Below, in pieces: positions 29,636-61,030 of a stretch of 64,000 nucleotides of DNA (position 1 is the first letter of the stretch; every line of letters starts with the position of its first letter). The stretch covers positions 1-64,000 of the forward strand of contig CAVPPZ010000014.1 of assembly GCA_963707305.1 (NCBI GenBank), read 5' to 3'. The stretch is from an uncultured Candidatus Rokubacteria bacterium (lineage in GTDB: Bacteria > Methylomirabilota > Methylomirabilia > Rokubacteriales > CSP1-6). A program made the translations under genes and the position numbers. The notes under the pieces are model-generated. The model had not been told where the DNA came from. It worked only from the letters and a program-made list of their open reading frames with translations, and did not search any database.

Positions 29636-30052
29636 GTGAGAACGCGTCCAGGCTACACGATCGGTCACCCCGATGCGGATCTCGCGCGCGACGAGCGGCG
29701 GACTCGTCGCCCCGACACGGGATGCGGCAACACGCTGGACATGACGCACCCGCGGACGCTGCAGCTCATCATGGACAGCCTGCGGTACTGGATCCGGGAC
29801 ATGCACGTCGACAACACGCTGATGATCCTGGTGAACGCGTATCACGAGCCGATCGACTTCGTGCTGCCCGCCCACCCGCGCGGCGCGCGGTGGGAGATCC
29901 TGCTGGACACGCGCGGCGCGAGCGGCCAGCGCCGCCACCGCGCGCTTCGCGGGGGCGCGTCCTACGACCTCGCGGCGCGCTGTCTGGCGATGCTGAGGCT
30001 CGTGGACATGCCCTCTACCAGCCGATCTCCTGGCCGGGATTCATCAACCTGA
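29636..30052 (+). pseudogene. glycogen debranching enzyme (GlgX)-like remnant with internal deletion
   Basis: The fragment reads ...[31 protein letters not shown], which is GlgX catalytic-domain sequence. It is joined directly to the extreme C-terminal part ...[31 protein letters not shown]. The catalytic barrel between them is missing. Confidence 0.5.
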
Positions 30053-31049
30053 CGTGCGTGTCGAGGCCGCGCCGTCGCGCTTCGCTCAGGAGCCGGTCCG
30101 GCGGCTCGTGAAAGGGTTCGCGGTTCAGCTCGAACGTGCCCCAGTGCATCGGCACGAGGACCGCGGCGCGTAAATCCTCGAAGGCCTGCACGGCTTCCTC
30201 GGGGTTGATGTGGTTGGGGTGATGCGTGCCCCAGCCGGCGTAGCCACCGATCGGGAGCAGCGCGGCCTGGAACGGGCCGAGCTGCGCGCCGATGTCCTTG
30301 AAGCCGGCGAAGTAGCCCGTGTCGCCCGCGAAGTACAGCCGCTGCTTCGGCGTGCCGACGACCCAGGAGGCCCACAGCCGGTGGTTCTGATCGGTGAGCC
30401 ATCGTCCCGACGAATGCTGCGCAGGGGCCGCGGTGAACGTCACGCCTCGCCACGTCGAGGCCTGCCACCAGTCGAGCTCGACGACGTCGGTCGCGCCGAA
30501 GCGTGTGAGCAGGTCCTTCATCCCGAGCGCCACGAAGAAACGCGGCTGGTACGTCGCGGCGAGGCGCCGCACGGTGGCCTCGTCGAGGTGGTCGTAGTGA
30601 TCGTGCGAGACGACGACCGCGTGGATCGGCGGCAGGTCCTCGAACCTGAGGCCGGGCGGGATGATGCGGCGTGGCCCGACGAAGCGGACGGGACTGGCGC
30701 GGTCGCCCCAGTTCGGATCGGTGAGGATGTTGAGGCCGCCGAGCTGGACGAGAAAGGTCGAGTGCCCGATCCAGGTGAGGGTCGGCTTGACCCCGTTCGC
30801 GCGGATCGCGGCCCCATCGTTCGACAGGACCTCGAGCGGCGTCCCCTGGGCCGGCCATCCCTCGAGAGTCCGCCGGACGAGGCGCCGGGCGCGCTCGACC
30901 ATCGGATAGGCGTACGCGGGATCGAGATTCCTGAACCCACGGTCGAGATGGTGGATCGGGGTCTCACGCTTCGGAGTCTGGGCGGTGGAGAACGTCTGCG
31001 GCGCGACCAGCAGCAGGGCAACGACCAGGACCAGCAAGCGACGACGCAC
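30015..31049 (-). CDS. MBL-fold metallo-hydrolase (NAPE-PLD-like), secreted
   Basis: Signal peptide [16 protein letters not shown]. Metal-binding motifs [10 protein letters not shown] and WIGHSTFL. 344 aa. Confidence 0.8.
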
Positions 31050-31120
31050 GGCAACTCCTACAATTCGGTGGGGTGTGAGCTCCGCAACAGACCCTTACGC
31101 TATCACACGGGGCGAGGCCC

Positions 31121-31288
31121 TCAATTGAACCAGCCGTCCTGCATGATGTGACGGCGCATGGCGAGGATCGCGGCCACGTCCTCCCGGCGGCACTCCGAGT
31201 TGCCCGCCATCTGGCGGAGGATCAACGAGACGCGCAACCAGGGGAGCTGCCAGGTCGCGTGCGCGTTCGGCGGATCTGACGTGGTCAT
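31121..31288 (-). CDS. hypothetical small protein (55 aa) downstream of the encapsulin gene
   Basis: AAAGGGG ribosome-binding site 6 nt upstream of ATG 31288. No recognisable domain. Confidence 0.3.
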   Translation of the reverse strand: MTTSDPPNAHATWQLPWLRVSLILRQMAGNSECRREDVAAILAMRRHIMQDGWFN

Positions 31289-31450
31289 CGACGCCCCTTT
31301 CGAGAACACTCGAACGTGCTCCCGAACAGGGGGCAACGACGCTGCCATCAGCGGCGGATCGTTAACTCGCTGGTTCTAAACGTGAAACGCGCTTGTGGTC
31401 ATTTCTGCCATGGCAGGGAGAGTCTCCCGAGCGGGGAGGTTCTCCCGGGA

Positions 31451-32261
31451 TCACGGCTCGAGGAGACACACCGCGTCCGGCGTCACGATCTGCGCCCCGA
31501 GGGTCTCGACGCAGAACAGGTGCACCGCGTCGCGATCGTGCAGGCGATAGCCCACGCTGAGGTCGCCGCCGACGCTCAGGACGAAATCGCCGTCCCGGAC
31601 CGAGAAGACGGCGCCCGGCGTCGCGGACGACCAGCGAGCGGTGGACCGCCCGGAGCACCTCGCGCAGTTGCCGGGCCGCGGGATACCCGTGGTCGCCTTC
31701 GGCCTGCAGGTACTCGAAGTACCGGCCCGGCGACAGCACGAGCTCGTACGGCCCACCGATGCCGCGCGTGTCGAGGATCTCGATCGCCTTCAGGACATCC
31801 GCGATCATGCGACCGGGCATCGTCCACTCGCCGGCCTTGACGCGTGGCGACTCCGGCGACGTGAGGAAGCCACCGCCGATGGGATCGCCGTAGAGCGCCA
31901 GGCGATCCTCGGCCAGCGCGACCTCGCGCGCCGCTTCCTCCGCGTGCTTGGTGTCGAGGCGCGTGGCGCCGCGCTCGAACACTTCGATCGCCGGCCACGG
32001 GAGGCTGAACTCCGCGCGGACCTCGGCGAGGAGCACCACCTCGGGCCGGCACACGGTCGCTGTTCCCTCGCGTGTCCGGCACGGCATCATCGTTCCGAGG
32101 CGCGAGGCCACGAGCTGATCCCACCCGTGCGGACCGTCGAACGTGGCGACGCGGCGGGCGGTCAGCACGTGACGCGCCGCCTGCCCCACGGCCTCGTCGA
32201 CCTCTTTCCACACAGGCGCGGACAGCGGAGCGGCCTCTCGACGCAGCGTGTCCATACTCAT
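31451..32261 (-). CDS. family-1 encapsulin nanocompartment shell protein (frameshifted near 31640)
   Basis: GAGGAGG ribosome-binding site. ATG 32261 overlaps the cargo gene stop (ATGA). The N-terminus MSMDTLRREAAPLSAPVWKEVDEAVGQAARHVLTARRVATFDGPHGW...GPYELVLSPGRYFEYL is HK97-fold Linocin_M18-like. After a 1-nt shift the C-terminus reads ...GAVFSVRDGDFVLSVGGDLSVGYRLHDRDAVHLFCVETLGAQIVTPDAVCLLEP. About 270 aa. Confidence 0.8.
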
Positions 32262-32644
32262 CGTCCTCCTCGGAGCGAGCCCACGGTCGCCGTGACGCGC
32301 GCGGCGCGCGGGTGTCCCGCACCGTTCCCCGGCGCCTCGCCCGCTTCGATCGCCTGCTCGCGTCCGACGATCGAGCCGCCGGTGAAGAGGTACTCGCGCA
32401 ACGTGGCGTCGAAGCGTGGATCGCGCCGGCGGATCCATTCGAGCACCATCGCGGCGTGCTCCTTCTCCTCGTCGCGGTTGTGGCGCAGGATGTCGCGCAG
32501 CTCGCCGTCATGGGTGGCGTCCATGCGCTGCTGGTACCAGTCGATCGCCTCCAGCTCTTCCATCAAGCTGACGATGGCGCGATGCATGTCGCGCGTCGCG
32601 GGCGCCAGGTGTTGCTCGGCCTCGTGGAATCCGGTGGAGCTCAT
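32258..32644 (-). CDS. encapsulated ferritin-like protein (EncFtn) cargo with C-terminal targeting peptide
   Basis: GAGGAGG ribosome-binding site 12 nt upstream of ATG 32644. The ferritin-like core is EELEAIDWYQQRMDATHDGELRDILRHNRDEEKEHAAMVLEWIRR. The C-terminal tail ...TATVGSLRGGR resembles encapsulin cargo-loading peptides. The gene lies directly upstream of the shell gene. Confidence 0.75.
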   Translation of the reverse strand: MSSTGFHEAEQHLAPATRDMHRAIVSLMEELEAIDWYQQRMDATHDGELRDILRHNRDEEKEHAAMVLEWIRRRDPRFDATLREYLFTGGSIVGREQAIEAGEAPGNGAGHPRAARVTATVGSLRGGR

Positions 32645-32767
32645 GGGGACGCGGTCCTCCTCGCCCCATCGTCTTGCAATCTTCTTGACAGCGACCTCGA
32701 CAGGACCGACCGTGGCGGACGGCGTGAAGGATCGCGACGAACGTCACGGACACCGGAGGGATCGGAG

Positions 32768-33085
32768 ATGACGGGGGGAACGGCGCGCGTGCGGGTCGCG
32801 GGGGCAGGGGACATCGGCCCCGGAGAAAAACGGGTGGTCGACGCGGCCGGGCGCGCCGTGGCGCTCTTCAACGTGGAGGGGCGCTACTACGCGATCGACA
32901 ACGCCTGCCCGCATCGCGGCGGGCCCCTGGCCGACGGGGATCTCGAGGGCGCGGTGATCGCGTGTCCCTGGCATGCCTGGCGCTGGGACGTCCGCACCGG
33001 CGCCAACACCAACAATCCCGCGGTGACGCTGGCCTGCTACGCCGTGACGGAGGAGGCGGGGAGCCTCTTCATCGAGGTCGCGTGA
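32768..33085 (+). CDS. Rieske [2Fe-2S] domain protein (NirD-like small Rieske ferredoxin)
   Basis: 105 aa with the CPHRGG and CPWHAW Rieske motifs. It diverges from the encapsulin operon. Confidence 0.8.
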   Translation: MTGGTARVRVAGAGDIGPGEKRVVDAAGRAVALFNVEGRYYAIDNACPHRGGPLADGDLEGAVIACPWHAWRWDVRTGANTNNPAVTLACYAVTEEAGSLFIEVA

Positions 33086-33128
33086 CGGTTTTGTTGACAC
33101 CCCGCGACCGCTTTCCTAGCATGCTCTG

Positions 33129-33323
33129 GTGGAGGCGGTGCTCGGCAGCTCGCTGACGCTTCCAGTCGGCGTGGCGCTCCTCGCAGGCGTGGGACTGGCG
33201 TATGGGTGGCGTGTGTACCAGCGGTGCCCGCATTGCGGACGCGTGGTCCGTCGAGTGTTCGTTGGGTGGAAACGCTGCCACGGGTGTGGCCGCCAGTACC
33301 GCCGTGGACTGAGACTGAGATGA
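33129..33323 (+). CDS. small membrane-anchored zinc-ribbon protein (CPHCG...CHGCG)
   Basis: 64 aa with a GTG start. One transmembrane helix (LTLPVGVALLAGVGLAYGW) precedes the CPHC-x14-CHGC motif. The 3' end overlaps the bactofilin start, and the start codon is uncertain. Confidence 0.4.
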   Translation: MEAVLGSSLTLPVGVALLAGVGLAYGWRVYQRCPHCGRVVRRVFVGWKRCHGCGRQYRRGLRLR

Positions 33324-44811: not shown

Positions 44812-47800
44812 GCTCCACCGTCACCGTTCCCGGCCCGAGCAGGGCCTCGATCTTCGCCGCCAGCTCGGCGCTGCCATCGACGGAGACGCTCGCGGCCCGC
44901 ACCACGACTTCGAGCGACGAGACGAGGACGTGAACGAAGAGCGGCACGCCGCCCGCGTGCTCGTTGCACACGCGGCGGAGACTCTCGAGTACGGTGGTGA
45001 CGTCGCCCTCGCCGGGGACGCGCACACGACACGCGTTCGGCTGGCTCGGGCCGTTGCTCTGCGACGGGCCGTCCGTTGCCGACCAGCGCATGCTCGAGCA
45101 ACCGGATGTCCTCGGCCAGCACGACCCGGCCCTTCTCCGTGTCGTCGACTTTCCCCCGGACCAGCAACACGTCGCGCGACCGCAGGTACCCGGCGCCCGC
45201 CTTGAAGGGCTCCGGGAAGATCGTGATGTCGACGCACGCCGTCGGTGTCCTCGAGCGTGGCGAACGCCATGCGGTTGCCGCTCTTGGTCGGGATCTCGCG
45301 GAGGTTCGTCACCTGGCCGTAGAGCAGGACCTTGCTGCCACTCGGCCGCGCGGCGAGCTCCGACGACGACGTGATCCCCAGCGAGTCCACGAGCGGCTTG
45401 AACCGCGCGAGCGGATGCCCGGAGACGTAGAACCCGAGCACTTCCTTCTCGAACGCGAGGCGCTGATCGTCGTCCCACTCCGGCACGGCCGCCGCGTCGG
45501 CGGCGCGCACGGGCGCCGGCGCCGCGGCCGGGAGCAGGTCGAAGAACGACCCCTGCCCTTCTGCCTTGTCGCGCTGCTGGCGCTGGCCGCTCTCCATGGC
45601 CGCGTCGAGCAGGGCGAGCAAGTGCGCGCGCGCCATCCCGATCGAGTCGAAGGCGCCGGCCTTGATGAGACTCTCCACGACGCGCCGGTTGACGAGGCGA
45701 AGGTCGACGCGCGCGCAGAAGTCGTCGAGGCTCGTGAACGTGCCGTCCGCGGCGCGGGTCTTGAGGATCGACTCCATGGCCGCCTCGCCGACGTTCTTGA
45801 TGGCGGCGAGCCCGAAGCGGATCGTGTCGTCGTGGACGCTGAACTGCACCGACGAGCCGTTCACGTCGGGCGGCTTCACCTCCACGCCCATGGCGCGACA
45901 CTCTTCGATGTACTTCACGATCTTGTCGGTGTCGCCCATTTCCGACGTCAGCAGCGCCGCCATGAACTCGACCGGGTAGTTCGCCTTGAAGTACGCCGTC
46001 TGGTAGGCGACGAGCGCATACGCGGCGGCGTGTGACTTGTTGAATCCGTAGCCCGCGAACTTCTCCATCAGCTCCCAGACCTTCTCGGCCTTGGCGGCTG
46101 ACGTCTTGCGCTCGGCGCAGCCCGCGAGGAACTTCTCCTTCTGCTTCGCCATGAGCTCGCGGTCCTTCTTGCCCATGGCGCGCCGGAGCGTGTCCGCTTC
46201 ACCCATGGTGAAGCCGGCCATCTCCACGGCGATCTGCATGATCTGCTCCTGGTAGATCATGATCCCGTACGTTTCCTGCGTGATCTTCTGCATCGCAGGA
46301 TGCTCGTACGTGATCTTCGCCCGCCCCTGCTTGCGGTTGATGAAGTCCGGGATCAGGTCCATGGGGCCCGGGCGATAGAGCGAGACCATCGCGATGACGT
46401 CTTCGAGCCGCTCGGGCCTGAGCCCGCGCAGCGCCTCGCGCATGCCCGACGACTCCAGCTGGAAGACGCCGAACGTCTTCGCCTCCGCCAGGCCGGCGTA
46501 CGTCTTCGCGTCGTCGAGCGGCAGCGTGTCGAAGTCGATCTCGATCCCGCGCGACTCCTTGAGGAGCTTCGCCGTGTTGGCGAGCACGGTGAGCGTGCGC
46601 AGGCCGAGGAAGTCCATCTTGAGGAGGCCGAGCTTCTCGATCGGGCCCATCGCGTAGCCGGTGATGAGCTCCGGCCGCTTGGGGTCCTTGTAGAGCGGCA
46701 CGTACTCGTCGAGCGGCTCGTCCGAGATCACGACCGCCGAGGCGTGGACGGAGGCGTGGCGCGTGCAGCCCTCCAGCGCCCGCGCGATGTCCCAGAGCTC
46801 CTTCACCGCTCGGCTGGCTCTTCACCATCTCGGCCAGCGGCGGCGACTTCTGGTACGCGTCGTCGAGCGTGATGTTGAGCGGGAAGCCCGGGACCAGCTT
46901 CGCGATGCGATCGACGTCGGCGAACGGCATCGCGAGCACGCGGCCGACGTCGCGGATGACGGCCTTCGCGCCCATCGTTCCGAACGTGATGATGTGCGCG
47001 ACGTGATCGTGGCCGTACCGCTCGGCGACGTACTTGATGACCTCATCCCGTCTGTCGTCGGCAAAATCGATGTCCATGTCGGGCATCGAGATTCGCTCGG
47101 GATTCAGGAATCGTTCGAACAGGAGGTTGTATCTGATCGGATCGATGTTCGTAATGCCAAGGCAGTACGCGACGAGCGAGCCCGCCGACGAGCCACGGCC
47201 CGGCCCCACCGCGATCCCCCGCTCGCGCGCGTAGCGGATGAAGTCCCACACGACGAGGAAGTACCCGGCGAAGCCCATCTTCTCGATCACGGCCAGCTCG
47301 TGATGCAGCCGCTCTTCGAGCGCGTCGCTCGGCGTCGCGCCGTACCGCCGGCGCAGGCCCTGGCGCGCGAGCTCCTCCAGGTAGCTGTTCAGCGTGTGGG
47401 TCTCGGGCACCGTGTACCTGGGCAGGTGGAAGGTGCCGAAGTCGATCGTCAGATCGCACTGCTCGGCGACCCGCACGGTGTTGGTGCACGCCTCCGGCAT
47501 CTCGCCGAAGACCACCGCCATCTCCTCCGCGGACTTCACGTAGAACTCCTCGGTGGAGAACTTCCAGCGGTTCGGGTCGTTCAGCGTGGAGCCGGTCTGG
47601 ATGCAGAGGAGCGCCTCGTGCGCGCGCGAGTGGCCGGCCTCGAGGTAGTGCGAGTCGTTGGTGCCCGCGATCGGCGCGCCGATCGCCTCCGCGATCCGGC
47701 GCGTCTCGGCGGTCACCTTGATCTGCTCGGCCAGCCCGTGGGCCTGGACCTCCATGAAGTAGTGGTCCTTGCCGAACACTTCCCGGTACCAGCCCGCGGC

Positions 47801-58195: not shown

Positions 58196-60945
58196 CTACG
58201 GCTTCGCGCCGCCGCCGAGCGAGCGCAAGACTTCCTCGAGCCGCTTCTGCTCGGCGCCGTAGGCCGCCCAGTCGCCGCGGCGGAGTGCCTCCTGCGAGCG
58301 GCCCCAGATCTCCCAGGCGCGCTGACCGAGCGCGCCGAGCGGGGCGGGCGCGGTCGGTGCGGCCGGCGAAGGGCCGCGCGCGGGCGCCGCCTCGGCGGCG
58401 GTCGGCCGGAGGCCGGTGAAGATCCGCGCGAGCGATTGCTCGAGCGTGGGCTCCATGGCGATCTGGTTGCCGTACGCGACGATCACGCGCCGCAGCTCCG
58501 GCAGCGCCCCCTGCTCCGACGCCGCCAGGTAGAGCGGCTGCACGTAGATCAGCGACTGGTCGATGGGGATCGCGAGGAGCGAGCCGCGGATCACCTGCGA
58601 GCCGCGCTGGTTCCACAGCGCGAGCTGCTGGGAGATCACCGGGTCCTGATCGATCCGGGCGTCGATCTGGCGCGGACCGTACACGAGCTTCTGCTTCGGG
58701 AAGTTGAAGACGATGAGCCGGCCGTAGTTCGGCGGATCGGAGCGCGCCGCCAGCCACGCGATCATGTTGTCGCGGCGCGCGGGGTTGAAGAGCGTCAGGA
58801 GGACGAACTCCTCCTTCGATTCGCCCGGCACGCGCATGATCGTGTAGTACGGCTCCATCTCCCGGTCACGCCCCTCGATCGCCCGCCGCGGCACCGCCCA
58901 CAGGTCCTCCTTGTTGTAGAACACTTGCGGGTCGAGCATGTGGTACGTCGCGTACTTGCGCGCCTGGATCGCGAAGAAGTCCTCCGGATACCGGATGTGC
59001 TTCTGGAGATCGGCGGGCATCTCCGCCAGCGGCTTCAGCAGCCCGGGGAACGCCTCGCGCGCAGGCGCGGACGATCGGGTCGGTGGGGTCGGCGATGTAG
59101 AACGTGACGTCGCCGTCGTAGGCGTCCACCGTCACCTTCACGGAGTTGCGCATGTAGTTGCCGATGCCCCGCGACGGGCTCGGAGTACGGGTAGCGATCG
59201 GTCGTCGTGTAGCCGTCGAGCATCCACACCAGCCGGCCCGGCGTCGTTGACCACGAGGTACGGATCGCGGTCGTAGCGGAAGAACGGCGCGATGCTGGCG
59301 GACGCGCTGGCTCGATCGTCGCGGTACAGCATGATGCGGCTCTCGGCGTGAGGTCGTTCGAGAGCAGGAGATCTTCGATCTCGCCGAAGCGCGCGGCGAA
59401 CGCGAGCTTCCGGAGCCACGAGCGTGATCACCACGCCGCCGCGGCCCTGCGTAGCGCGTGTACACGTTCTGGTCGCCGGCGCGGATAGTCGAGCTCCTGC
59501 GAGCGCGTGCGGACGAGGACGTACTCGTTGGCGATCTCGCCGTAGTAGATCTCCGGCCGCGTCACCTTCGGGAAGCCGCCCGTCGAGACTGCGGCGGGAT
59601 GTCCTTGACGAGGAACTCCGGCAGCCCCTCGGTGGTGATGCGGTTGACCGGGCCCACCACGACGCCGTAGCCGTGCGTGAACGTCAGGTGCTCGTTGATC
59701 CAGATCCGCGCACTGCAGATGCGGGTACGACAGCTCGCGCGGCGACAGCATGAGCTGGCGGTACTCGCCGTTCACCACGTAGCGGTCGTTGTCGACGTCC
59801 ACGAACTTGTAGTAGGTGCGGATCTCCTGGAGCTGCGCGAAGGTGCGCAGGAGCGGCCGGTAGTCCCACAGCCGGATGTTCTTGATGGTCGAGCTCGTTG
59901 CGCTCCAGCGCGCGCGCATCGAGCGTGCTCGTCGGCCGGGAACTCGCGCTCCTGACGATCCGGTCGAGGCCGTACGGCCTGGCGCGTCATCCGGATGTTG
60001 TGCTCGATGAAGGGCCGCTCGGCCGCCAGCTCGTTGGGCGTGACGCGGAAGCGCTGGAGCAGCGCCGGGTACAGCGCCGAGACCCACCACCCACACGACG
60101 CCCAGCAGCCACCAGCCCGCCCGCCACGAACCGGAGGCCGGGCCGCCCGATCTGGACCAGGCACGCGACGGCGCACAGCGCGGCCAGCACGGCGAGCGCG
60201 CCCAGCATCGGCAGCGTCGCGTTGATGTCGGTGTAGGACGCGCCCACGATGATCCCGCGCGCGCGAGAAGAGCATCTCGAAGCGGTCGAGCCAGAAGCCG
60301 ATCGCCTTCAGCGCCGAGCAGCAGCGCGCCCAGCACGAGGAGATGCGCGCGGGCGCCGGACGGCGAGGCGCGGGCCGCGCGTCGTCAGCGCGAGGCTGCG
60401 CGCAGCACGTAGACGACCAGCGCGAGCAGCGATCGTTCCCGTCGACGAGCGCCGGTCGCCCAGCCGTGCACAGCCGCCAGAAGGGCAGGACGAACACGAA
60501 GAAGCCGAGGTCGCGACCGAAGAGCGGATCGGTCGTGCCGAACGGCGCGGCCGTTCAGGAAGCCGACGACGATCGCCCAGTGCGCGCTGGCGCGCAGCCG
60601 GCCACGATGGAGATGACGAGCAGGACGACGGGCAGGAAACGCCGCAGGAGCGGCTCGATGACGACCCGGCCGGGCAGTCCGAGCTGATCCTCGAGCTCCC
60701 ACACGCACGTCGGGCGCCGCGGTCCGGGCCGCGAACGTGAGGTTGGCGCCACAGGAACACGAGGACGCCGACCAGCATCGCGGTGAACAGCCCGCCGCGC
60801 AGGGACAGGATGCTGCAGGAAGACCTGGCTGTAGCCGACCTCGCCGAACCACAGCCAGTCCGTGTAGAGCGGCACGAGCTGGGCGACGATCGCCAGCAGG
60901 ACGAACACGCAGAATCAGGATGACGACGGGAGGGAGTCGCCTCAT
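58196..60945 (-). CDS. UPF0182-family large membrane protein (at least 6 frameshifts in this assembly)
   Basis: Fragments across frames. The N-terminus is [12 protein letters not shown]... The family motifs include [17 protein letters not shown] and [53 protein letters not shown]. The intact C-terminal 274 aa read ...[20 protein letters not shown]... Confidence 0.65.
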
Positions 60946-60960
60946 GGTCGGCCGTCCAGT

Positions 60961-61030
60961 AGCGGTACTACGTTCGAGCGCGGGCGGTGCCCGCGCTCTC
61001 CTAGTTCTGGGGGAGGGTGCGGAGGGGGCC
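60961..61030. repeat. GC-rich palindromic repeats (GAGCGCGGGC-GGTG-CCCGCGCTC; GGAGGGGGCCTCGACGGCTCCCTCCGAAT)
   Basis: 10-bp stem hairpin plus a copy related to 9969-9995. It lies between the UPF0182 start and the metK stop. Confidence 0.45.

Follow-up and report, generated by a model that had tools for sequence, protein, structure and literature searches.

A predicted EncFtn-type Family 1 encapsulin operon in a Rokubacteria contig, with a shell gene split by a probable assembly error

The encapsulin systems of Haliangium ochraceum and Rhodospirillum rubrum (PDB 7OE2/7ODW, 5DA5; He et al., 2016, PMC5012862), in which an encapsulated ferritin-like (EncFtn) protein is the cargo, are the described counterparts to which the locus reported here was compared. 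In both, the EncFtn gene is followed by the shell gene, the cargo consists of a two-helix EncFtn domain, a disordered linker and a C-terminal ...GSL(R/K) anchor, and the shell is about 265 amino acids long. Iron-storage encapsulins also include Myxococcus xanthus EncA, which acts with EncB, EncC and EncD and has triangulation number T=3, and the IMEF systems of Firmicutes, while the Thermotoga maritima encapsulin (maritimacin, 3DKT) combines a T=1 shell with a ferritin-like cargo. Here we analyze a gene pair on the minus strand of a 64,000-nucleotide stretch of DNA, referred to below as the window (positions 1 to 64,000 of contig CAVPPZ010000014.1, assembly GCA_963707305.1), from an uncultured Candidatus Rokubacteria bacterium. 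We consider it very likely that this pair constitutes a classical Family 1 EncFtn encapsulin iron-storage operon of Rokubacteria and that the frameshift interrupting its shell gene in the deposited sequence is an artefact. Like the H. ochraceum and R. rubrum systems, the locus has the order EncFtn then shell, the two-helix domain with identical Glu/Glu/His(+Tyr) ferroxidase and Glu/Glu entry residues, the linker followed by the anchor, and a shell of similar length that is closest to T=1 shells. It differs from them in its moderate sequence identity, in its uncultivated host, which belongs to a soil phylum, and in a motif extended to GSLRGGR, the Arg-Gly-Gly codons of which coincide with the ribosome-binding site of the shell gene.

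The EncFtn cargo gene and the encapsulin shell gene

The features of the gene pair are as follows.

32258..32644, minus strand: EncFtn (encapsulated ferritin-like) cargo gene, intact, 128 amino acids (PF22277, TIGR04535, matches to solved structures)
32261..32290, minus strand: codons of the predicted cargo-loading peptide (ATVGSLRGGR), after a variable Gly/Ala/Asn-rich linker (terminus conserved in about 46 Rokubacterial EncFtn genes)
32656..32662, minus strand: Shine-Dalgarno sequence GAGGAGG of EncFtn, 11 nt 5' of the EncFtn ATG (read from the sequence)
32265..32271, minus strand: Shine-Dalgarno sequence GAGGAGG for the shell, inside the Arg-Gly-Gly codons of the loading peptide (read from the sequence)
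31451..32261, minus strand: Family 1 encapsulin shell gene, conserved start probably ATG 32255, product of 267-269 amino acids after removal of an extra base (PF04454, NF041155, 3DKT)

The first gene of the pair, at 32644..32258, had been read in a first-pass annotation of this DNA as a ferritin-like cargo, and this assignment was upheld by both family profiles, with scores above cutoff for PF22277 (E=2.1e-40; 136.8 bits, cutoff 27) and for TIGR04535, the NCBIfam model of the encapsulin-associated ferritin-like protein (132.6 bits, cutoff 125). Its product also matched solved EncFtn structures with E values from 1e-30 to 3e-34. The alignment with R. rubrum EncFtn (5DA5) runs without gaps at an offset of +2, and within it E30, E60, H63 and Y37 of the window protein correspond to Glu32, Glu62, His65 and Tyr39 of the R. 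rubrum ferroxidase centre, while E29 and E32 correspond to the entry-site residues Glu31 and Glu34; all of these residues are identical. Both the ferroxidase centre and the Glu31/Glu34 site of the R. rubrum protein have been defined experimentally (PMC5012862).

About 46 related loci, including 44 from GTDB, were compared with the window. The GTDB matches are all metagenome-assembled genomes of Rokubacteria/Methylomirabilota with 60-79% shell identity, and EncFtn lies directly 5' of the shell gene in essentially every related locus. Among the EncFtn orthologs of these loci the Gly/Ala/Asn-rich linker, which begins past residue ~90, is hypervariable, and despite this variability a [TS][VIL]GSLRGGR-like terminus is kept throughout. 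The proposed resemblance of the terminal TVGSLRGGR to encapsulin cargo-loading peptides thus found support in its conservation, and likewise in a comparison with a known loading peptide, as the C-terminus of the window protein aligns to the 'encapsulated ferritin localisation sequence' of H. ochraceum (...GIGSL). A Gly-Ser-Leu-Lys motif of EncFtn has been described previously (PMC5012862), and the targeting motif of the IMEF ferredoxin (TVGSL-type, PMC8346489) resembles the TVGSLR of the window protein as well; the similarity of the window EncFtn to EncB and EncC is weak. The cargo is accordingly predicted to have the expected layout, in which a flexible tether connects the enzyme domain to an anchor for the shell. 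Variants of the terminus were observed in three of the related loci. In L012 and L045 EncFtn ends right after ...GSLR (CGA TGA instead of CGA GGA), leaving a shorter targeting peptide, and in L030 the EncFtn frame continues into the shell gene, which represents either a fusion or a further long-read frame error.

For the shell, profile scores were computed on the protein of 269 amino acids obtained when the one inserted base described below is removed. The repaired protein matched PF04454 (Linocin_M18) over model positions 1-252 of 253 (E=2e-54) and the Family 1 encapsulin equivalog NF041155 over its full length (model 1-261 of 261; 194.9 bits, cutoff 100), and it matched 37 solved encapsulin chains full-length, the best of them being T. 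maritima 3DKT (E=4e-35), residues 1-263 of which align with shell residues 3-267. The first-pass identification of an encapsulin shell gene therefore stands once one base is removed, and the profiles place shell and cargo alike in the families in which they had been expected. Since the HK97 fold is common to encapsulins and phage capsids, which are often confused (PMC8346489), the gene might instead encode the major capsid protein of a prophage. We regard this as barely conceivable, because the match to the NCBIfam Family 1 encapsulin equivalog is full-length, an EncFtn gene bearing a loading peptide lies directly upstream, and the gene is surrounded by cellular genes (Rieske, bactofilin, TPR, metallo-beta-lactamase hydrolase, RRM and MurB) among which no terminase, portal or protease gene was found. 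The locus is thus predicted to comprise the gene of an EncFtn cargo with a C-terminal loading peptide and, following it, a Family 1 encapsulin shell gene.

Among the solved structures the shell was closest to T=1 particles, namely those of T. maritima (4e-35) and H. ochraceum (5e-32), and matched larger shells more weakly, with E values of 7e-17 for the T=3 EncA of M. xanthus and 3e-10 for a T=4 shell. A T=1 60-mer is therefore the most likely architecture. In the alignment with the T. maritima encapsulin, the best solved match, the flavin-contacting Trp of that protein falls one position off the invariant Trp89 of the window shell, and flavin binding can thus not be assumed for the latter.

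The cargo and shell genes are translationally coupled. In 40 of the 46 loci the stop codon of the cargo shares 1 nt with the start codon of the shell (TGATG), and in the window the Arg-Gly-Gly codons (CGA GGA GG) of the EncFtn tail, CGAGGAGG, double as the Shine-Dalgarno sequence of the shell gene; a (C)GAGGAGG inside the loading-peptide codons was found in most related loci as well. The '...RGGR' tail might consequently be conserved partly under the constraint of translational coupling rather than for binding to the shell. The first-pass annotation had assigned GAGGAGG ribosome-binding sites to both genes, and these are located at 32662-32656 and 32271-32265, the former being kept also in L001, L046 and L049. 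It had further described the coupling as an ATGA overlap. Although ATG 32261 does overlap the EncFtn TGA in this manner, the conserved form of the junction is either TGATG or a gap of 2 nt to a start at MDTLRR. The window and the relatives nearest to it have two additional bases between the cargo stop and the shell start (TGAGTATG), which creates an incidental upstream ATGA start at ATG 32261, whereas ATG 32255 (MDTLRR) follows the EncFtn stop at a distance of 2 nt. In most homologs the protein begins with MD(T/Y)LRR, and most homologs, the profiles and Met1 of the T. maritima protein all align to ATG 32255, suggesting that this codon, and not ATG 32261, is probably the conserved shell start.

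The frame break in the shell gene and insertion errors across the window

The reading frame of the shell gene is interrupted at one position.

31614..31618, minus strand: single inserted base within GCCGGGC (DNA alignments, tblastn, codon-position hidden Markov model)

On the minus strand the window reads GAC GCC GGG C GCC at 31614-31618, whereas the sequence in relatives is GACGCCGGCGCG or GACGCGGGCGCC. In its deposited form the gene is divided into an open reading frame (ORF) of 299 amino acids (32261..31362), of which residues 1-215 are native and the following 84 out of frame, and a second of 101 amino acids (31756..31451); the C-terminal 54 residues of the shell sit in this other frame and end at 31451. 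The position of the break was consistent among the approaches used. In tblastn the shell frame changes at residue 214/215, a codon-position hidden Markov model (HMM) trained on the window switched frame at 31613/31614, and in DNA alignments the extra base is missing from an ENA forest-soil contig with 95% shell identity (L001), from a 30.6-kb JGI contig that is syntenic with window positions 25.2-40.5 kb (L046), and from a short-read Logan contig with ~95% DNA identity (L050). Twelve intact shell homologs (267-271 amino acids, up to 95% identity) align across the break site without gaps. A frame break of 1 nt had been noted before, together with the expectation that automated annotation would split or truncate the shell gene, which the two deposited ORFs bear out. 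The break was, however, placed near 31640, some 25 nt from its actual site, which falls just outside the range of 31620-31680 that had been suggested for a check at read level.

Breaks of the same kind are scattered over the window. The HMM reported about 25 same-strand frame switches without a nearby stop codon, each switch being searched for a stop codon from -200 to +75 nt. Fourteen of these were confirmed as further breaks in other genes, either from Pfam coordinates or by tblastn/blastn against the intact syntenic contig L046. The break sites include 9136, 10198, 13205, 14436, 25634, 36706, 36891, 38476, 40282, 42152, 42433, 44186 and 46808, and the affected genes are 2-Hacid_dh, DUF1207, aldehyde:ferredoxin oxidoreductase (AOR; two breaks), IlvD/Edd, an AMP-binding enzyme (two breaks), a GT4 glycosyltransferase, MiaB, FBPase_3 (two breaks), AccA and dnaE. 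Pfam coordinates run on over the break in dnaE (DNA_pol3_alpha 1-191 and 193-260), IlvD/Edd (ILVD_EDD_N 26-251 and 256-316), MiaB (Radical_SAM 2-99 and 108-165) and the GT4 glycosyltransferase (Glycos_transf_1 6-59 and 64-171). Joining the pieces gave a single Pfam stretch over the junction for 2-Hacid_dh, DUF1207, AOR, FBPase_3 and AccA, while both breaks in the AMP-binding enzyme were identified by tblastn against L046, in which the compared genes are intact. All confirmed breaks are of the +1 type (f to f+1), and each of the six compared at the DNA level is a 1-nt insertion in the window. Further breaks are probably present at 45235, 45075 and 35801 and at several sites in the 59-64 kb region.

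No organism could live with its dnaE and accA genes disrupted, and it is hence most parsimonious to assume that the assembly is prone to insertions, with roughly one single-base error per 4 kb, and that the break in the shell gene is one such error. Given the other +1 breaks in the window, including those in dnaE and accA, as well as the intact relatives, we judge the shell break to be almost certainly a sequencing or assembly artefact, and the shell gene is very probably intact in the organism. It might be argued that the gene is a genuine pseudogene and that the organism has lost its shell while retaining an orphan EncFtn, as the deposited sequence does carry the frameshift and the reduction of a nearby glgX/isoamylase gene to remnants indicates some real gene decay in the region. 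Such a loss appears very unlikely in view of at least 14 other breaks of the same type in 64 kb, some in essential genes (dnaE, accA), of the intact close relatives, and of a shell coding sequence that beyond the single base is undamaged and 95% identical to intact homologs. The location of the break within a G/C run and the 84 further codons over which the zero frame remains open would also be compatible with a programmed +1 ribosomal frameshift regulating the amount of shell protein. We give this mechanism next to no weight, since the site is not conserved, every homolog examined is encoded in a single frame, neither a slow codon nor a stop codon is present at the site, and breaks of identical type are dispersed over unrelated genes.

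Two other regions of the window deserve mention with regard to sequence quality. At 29686-30004 on the plus strand two glgX/isoamylase remnants match residues 298-350 and 639-704 of the intact gene of 705 amino acids in L046; compared with that contig the window lacks about 1.8 kb, which may reflect either a true deletion or an error of assembly. The region 60100-61000 has a strong skew of A over T (+0.33 to +0.44), the coding HMM finds no consistent frame in it, and 973 nt are called non-coding, flanked by many frame switches of 70-240 nt in 59.0-60.3 kb. Its appearance is that of a gene for a membrane protein on the minus strand that contains many closely spaced frame errors. Neither tRNA genes nor Rfam families (gathering thresholds) were found when the full window was scanned for them.

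Conserved neighbours of the EncFtn-shell pair

Upstream and downstream of the gene pair the following features were identified.

32645..32767, no strand assigned: divergent intergenic region, 123 nt (alignment with L001, L046 and L049)
32768..33085, plus strand: small Rieske [2Fe-2S] ferredoxin, 105 amino acids, ligands C47/H49 and C66/H69 (PF00355, E=1.1e-19)
31416..31446, minus strand: GC-rich nested hairpin (GGGAGA..CUCCC..GGGAG..UCUCCC) directly 3' of the shell stop, with no U-tract (RNA fold)
31121..31288, minus strand: small protein, 55 amino acids, motif WQLPWLRV.LILR...GWFN-COOH (27 homologs)
30015..31049, minus strand: predicted secreted metallo-beta-lactamase-fold hydrolase, 344 amino acids, syntenic neighbour (PF12706, E=1.8e-42)

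In about 29 of the related loci the gene pair is accompanied by a divergent Rieske gene and a downstream metallo-beta-lactamase (MBL) gene within a larger block, with TPR, bactofilin, small ORFs and Rieske on one side and EncFtn, shell and MBL on the other. In a sister clade (shell identity 60-66%) and in the closest GTDB relative (L002; 79%) EncFtn and shell are found in other contexts, and no Rieske gene was detected in the available flanking DNA of these loci. In L041 (5636-8412) EncFtn and shell are jointly inverted with respect to the Rieske-TPR block. Since EncFtn and shell remain together in differing contexts, in some of which Rieske is absent, the functional unit is predicted to be a two-gene module consisting of EncFtn and shell, and the Rieske protein, the 55-amino-acid protein and the MBL hydrolase are best viewed as conserved neighbours rather than as demonstrated components. 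A full-text literature search combining encapsulin with Rokubacteria returned nothing relevant.

The divergent gene had been described as encoding a NirD-like Rieske protein. A Rieske gene is indeed present in this orientation, but its score against the NirD model TIGR02378 is below cutoff (56.3 bits, cutoff 74.65), as is that against HcaC (71, cutoff 113), and its neighbours are not nirB but a 64-amino-acid ORF, a bactofilin gene and a TPR gene. The CxH...CxxH ligands are kept in 28 orthologs of this neighbourhood, while the termini are variable, and a TVGSL-like targeting motif was found at neither terminus in any of these proteins. The 'GSL' in the C-terminus of the window protein (...AGSLFIEVA) was considered as a targeting peptide and rejected, as it is not conserved among the orthologs.

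In the intergenic region a TGTCAAG element at 32690..32684 (minus strand; CTTGACA when read in the direction of Rieske) is conserved between the window, L001, L046 and L049 and recurs 5' of EncFtn in most Rieske-linked loci. It may serve either as an operator or, with the window reading TTGACA-N17-GACCGT, as the -35 box for transcription of Rieske. It was the only conserved element seen in the Rieske-EncFtn intergenic region, and no AT-rich palindrome resembling a Fur box was seen there. A consensus scan of 30900-33200 for promoters and terminators revealed no terminator and a single promoter-like site, which lies 3' of the Rieske gene.

The presence of this gene next to the encapsulin operon raises the question of whether the Rieske protein is a dedicated redox partner that supplies electrons for the release of stored Fe3+, in a manner comparable to Bfd and bacterioferritin or to the IMEF ferredoxins, with the 55-amino-acid protein possibly as an accessory. 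The orthologs are well conserved, about 29 related loci keep the divergent adjacency, which the inversion in L041 has left in place, and the literature describes the electron donor for the release of encapsulin iron as still missing and Bfd-like ferredoxins as companions of IMEF systems (PMC8346489, PMC11202242). In IMEF operons, too, a nearby gene encodes a 2Fe-2S protein; the iron-sulfur neighbour in the window is, in contrast, of the Rieske type and carries no targeting motif. Several observations make a dedicated partnership unlikely. Being one element of a more extensive syntenic block, the adjacency is explained by vertical inheritance, and the co-occurrence of Rieske with the encapsulin operon, being limited to the clade that shares the block, is no greater than shared synteny accounts for. 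No Rieske gene is present nearby in about 16 loci for which 2 kb or more of upstream sequence is available, including that of L002, the 55-amino-acid ORF is restricted to one subclade, and a full-text literature search yielded no paper linking encapsulins with a Rieske protein. The iron/redox-handling module suggested in the first-pass annotation is therefore not borne out as far as the Rieske gene is concerned, the link amounting to synteny that is missing from the sister clade and L002 and is accompanied by no targeting peptide.

Downstream of the shell gene the 168-nt spacer (31289-31456, minus strand) folds with -67.5 kcal/mol (z=-2.78), and the hairpin directly after the shell stop is conserved in three of four relatives; it may mark the 3' end of the EncFtn-shell transcript or stabilise it. 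The small ORF that had been noted 3' of the shell gene was found at 31288..31121 on the minus strand. Its product has 27 homologs of 55-57 amino acids with 60-98% identity and 20 invariant positions (WQLPWLRV.LILR.M...ED...R...GWFN), and the ORF is a real, narrowly distributed gene. The family signature is WQ(L/H)P(W/Y)LR...(I/L)(R/K)...GWFN, with GWFN at the extreme C-terminus. In all contigs checked the ORF sits between the shell and MBL genes, it was found in none of the 44 GTDB loci, and it is limited to a subclade of 80-95% shell identity; a profile run against 1.84 billion representatives recovered only 25 proteins of the family, nearly all of 45-99 amino acids. The protein has no Pfam or NCBIfam match, and AlphaFold2 modelled it as a helical hairpin with moderate confidence (predicted local distance difference test, pLDDT, of 68). 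The MBL hydrolase scored below cutoff against the generic NCBIfam 'metal-dependent hydrolase' model, and about 29 related loci carry its gene 3' of shell. Like Rieske, the MBL gene is missing from the sister clade, and its product bears no targeting peptide.

Predicted function and significance of the locus

By analogy with characterised homologs (PMC5012862, PMC8346489, PMC11202242), Fe2+ would enter through the shell pores and be oxidised by ring-shaped EncFtn decamers at di-iron ferroxidase sites formed between subunits (E30/E60/H63 with Y37). The flexible linker and the TVGSLRGGR peptide would dock EncFtn into the P-domain pocket on the inner face of the shell, and a ferric mineral would build up in the shell lumen, providing iron storage and protection against oxidative stress.

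Some considerations weigh against this interpretation of the locus. What is predicted for the assembly of the shell and its T number, for the loading of cargo and for ferroxidase activity is carried over from homologs, and the inserted base could be real in this particular strain. Moreover, the AlphaFold2 model of the repaired shell, built from an alignment of 13 close homologs, was poor (pLDDT 42.8), and the predicted HK97 fold thus rests on full-length sequence homology.

EncFtn-type Family 1 encapsulins are already well characterised structurally and biochemically, and both genes could be named by standard pipelines were the shell ORF intact; the biological novelty of the operon is therefore small. 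The analysis does provide a data-quality flag for the assembly, as automated pipelines will report the shell gene and many others (dnaE, accA, miaB and the ilvD-like gene among them) in split or truncated form. Calls of a pseudogene or of an 'orphan cargo' made from this assembly would be wrong, and the contig needs polishing first. With regard to the biology of encapsulins, how iron is released from them is an unresolved question (PMC11202242), and the clade-conserved Rieske neighbour is the only lead toward it that emerged here. If the unlikely partnership considered above were true, the Rieske protein of this clade would fill the place of the missing electron donor for iron mobilisation from an EncFtn encapsulin, as a Rieske-type counterpart of Bfd.

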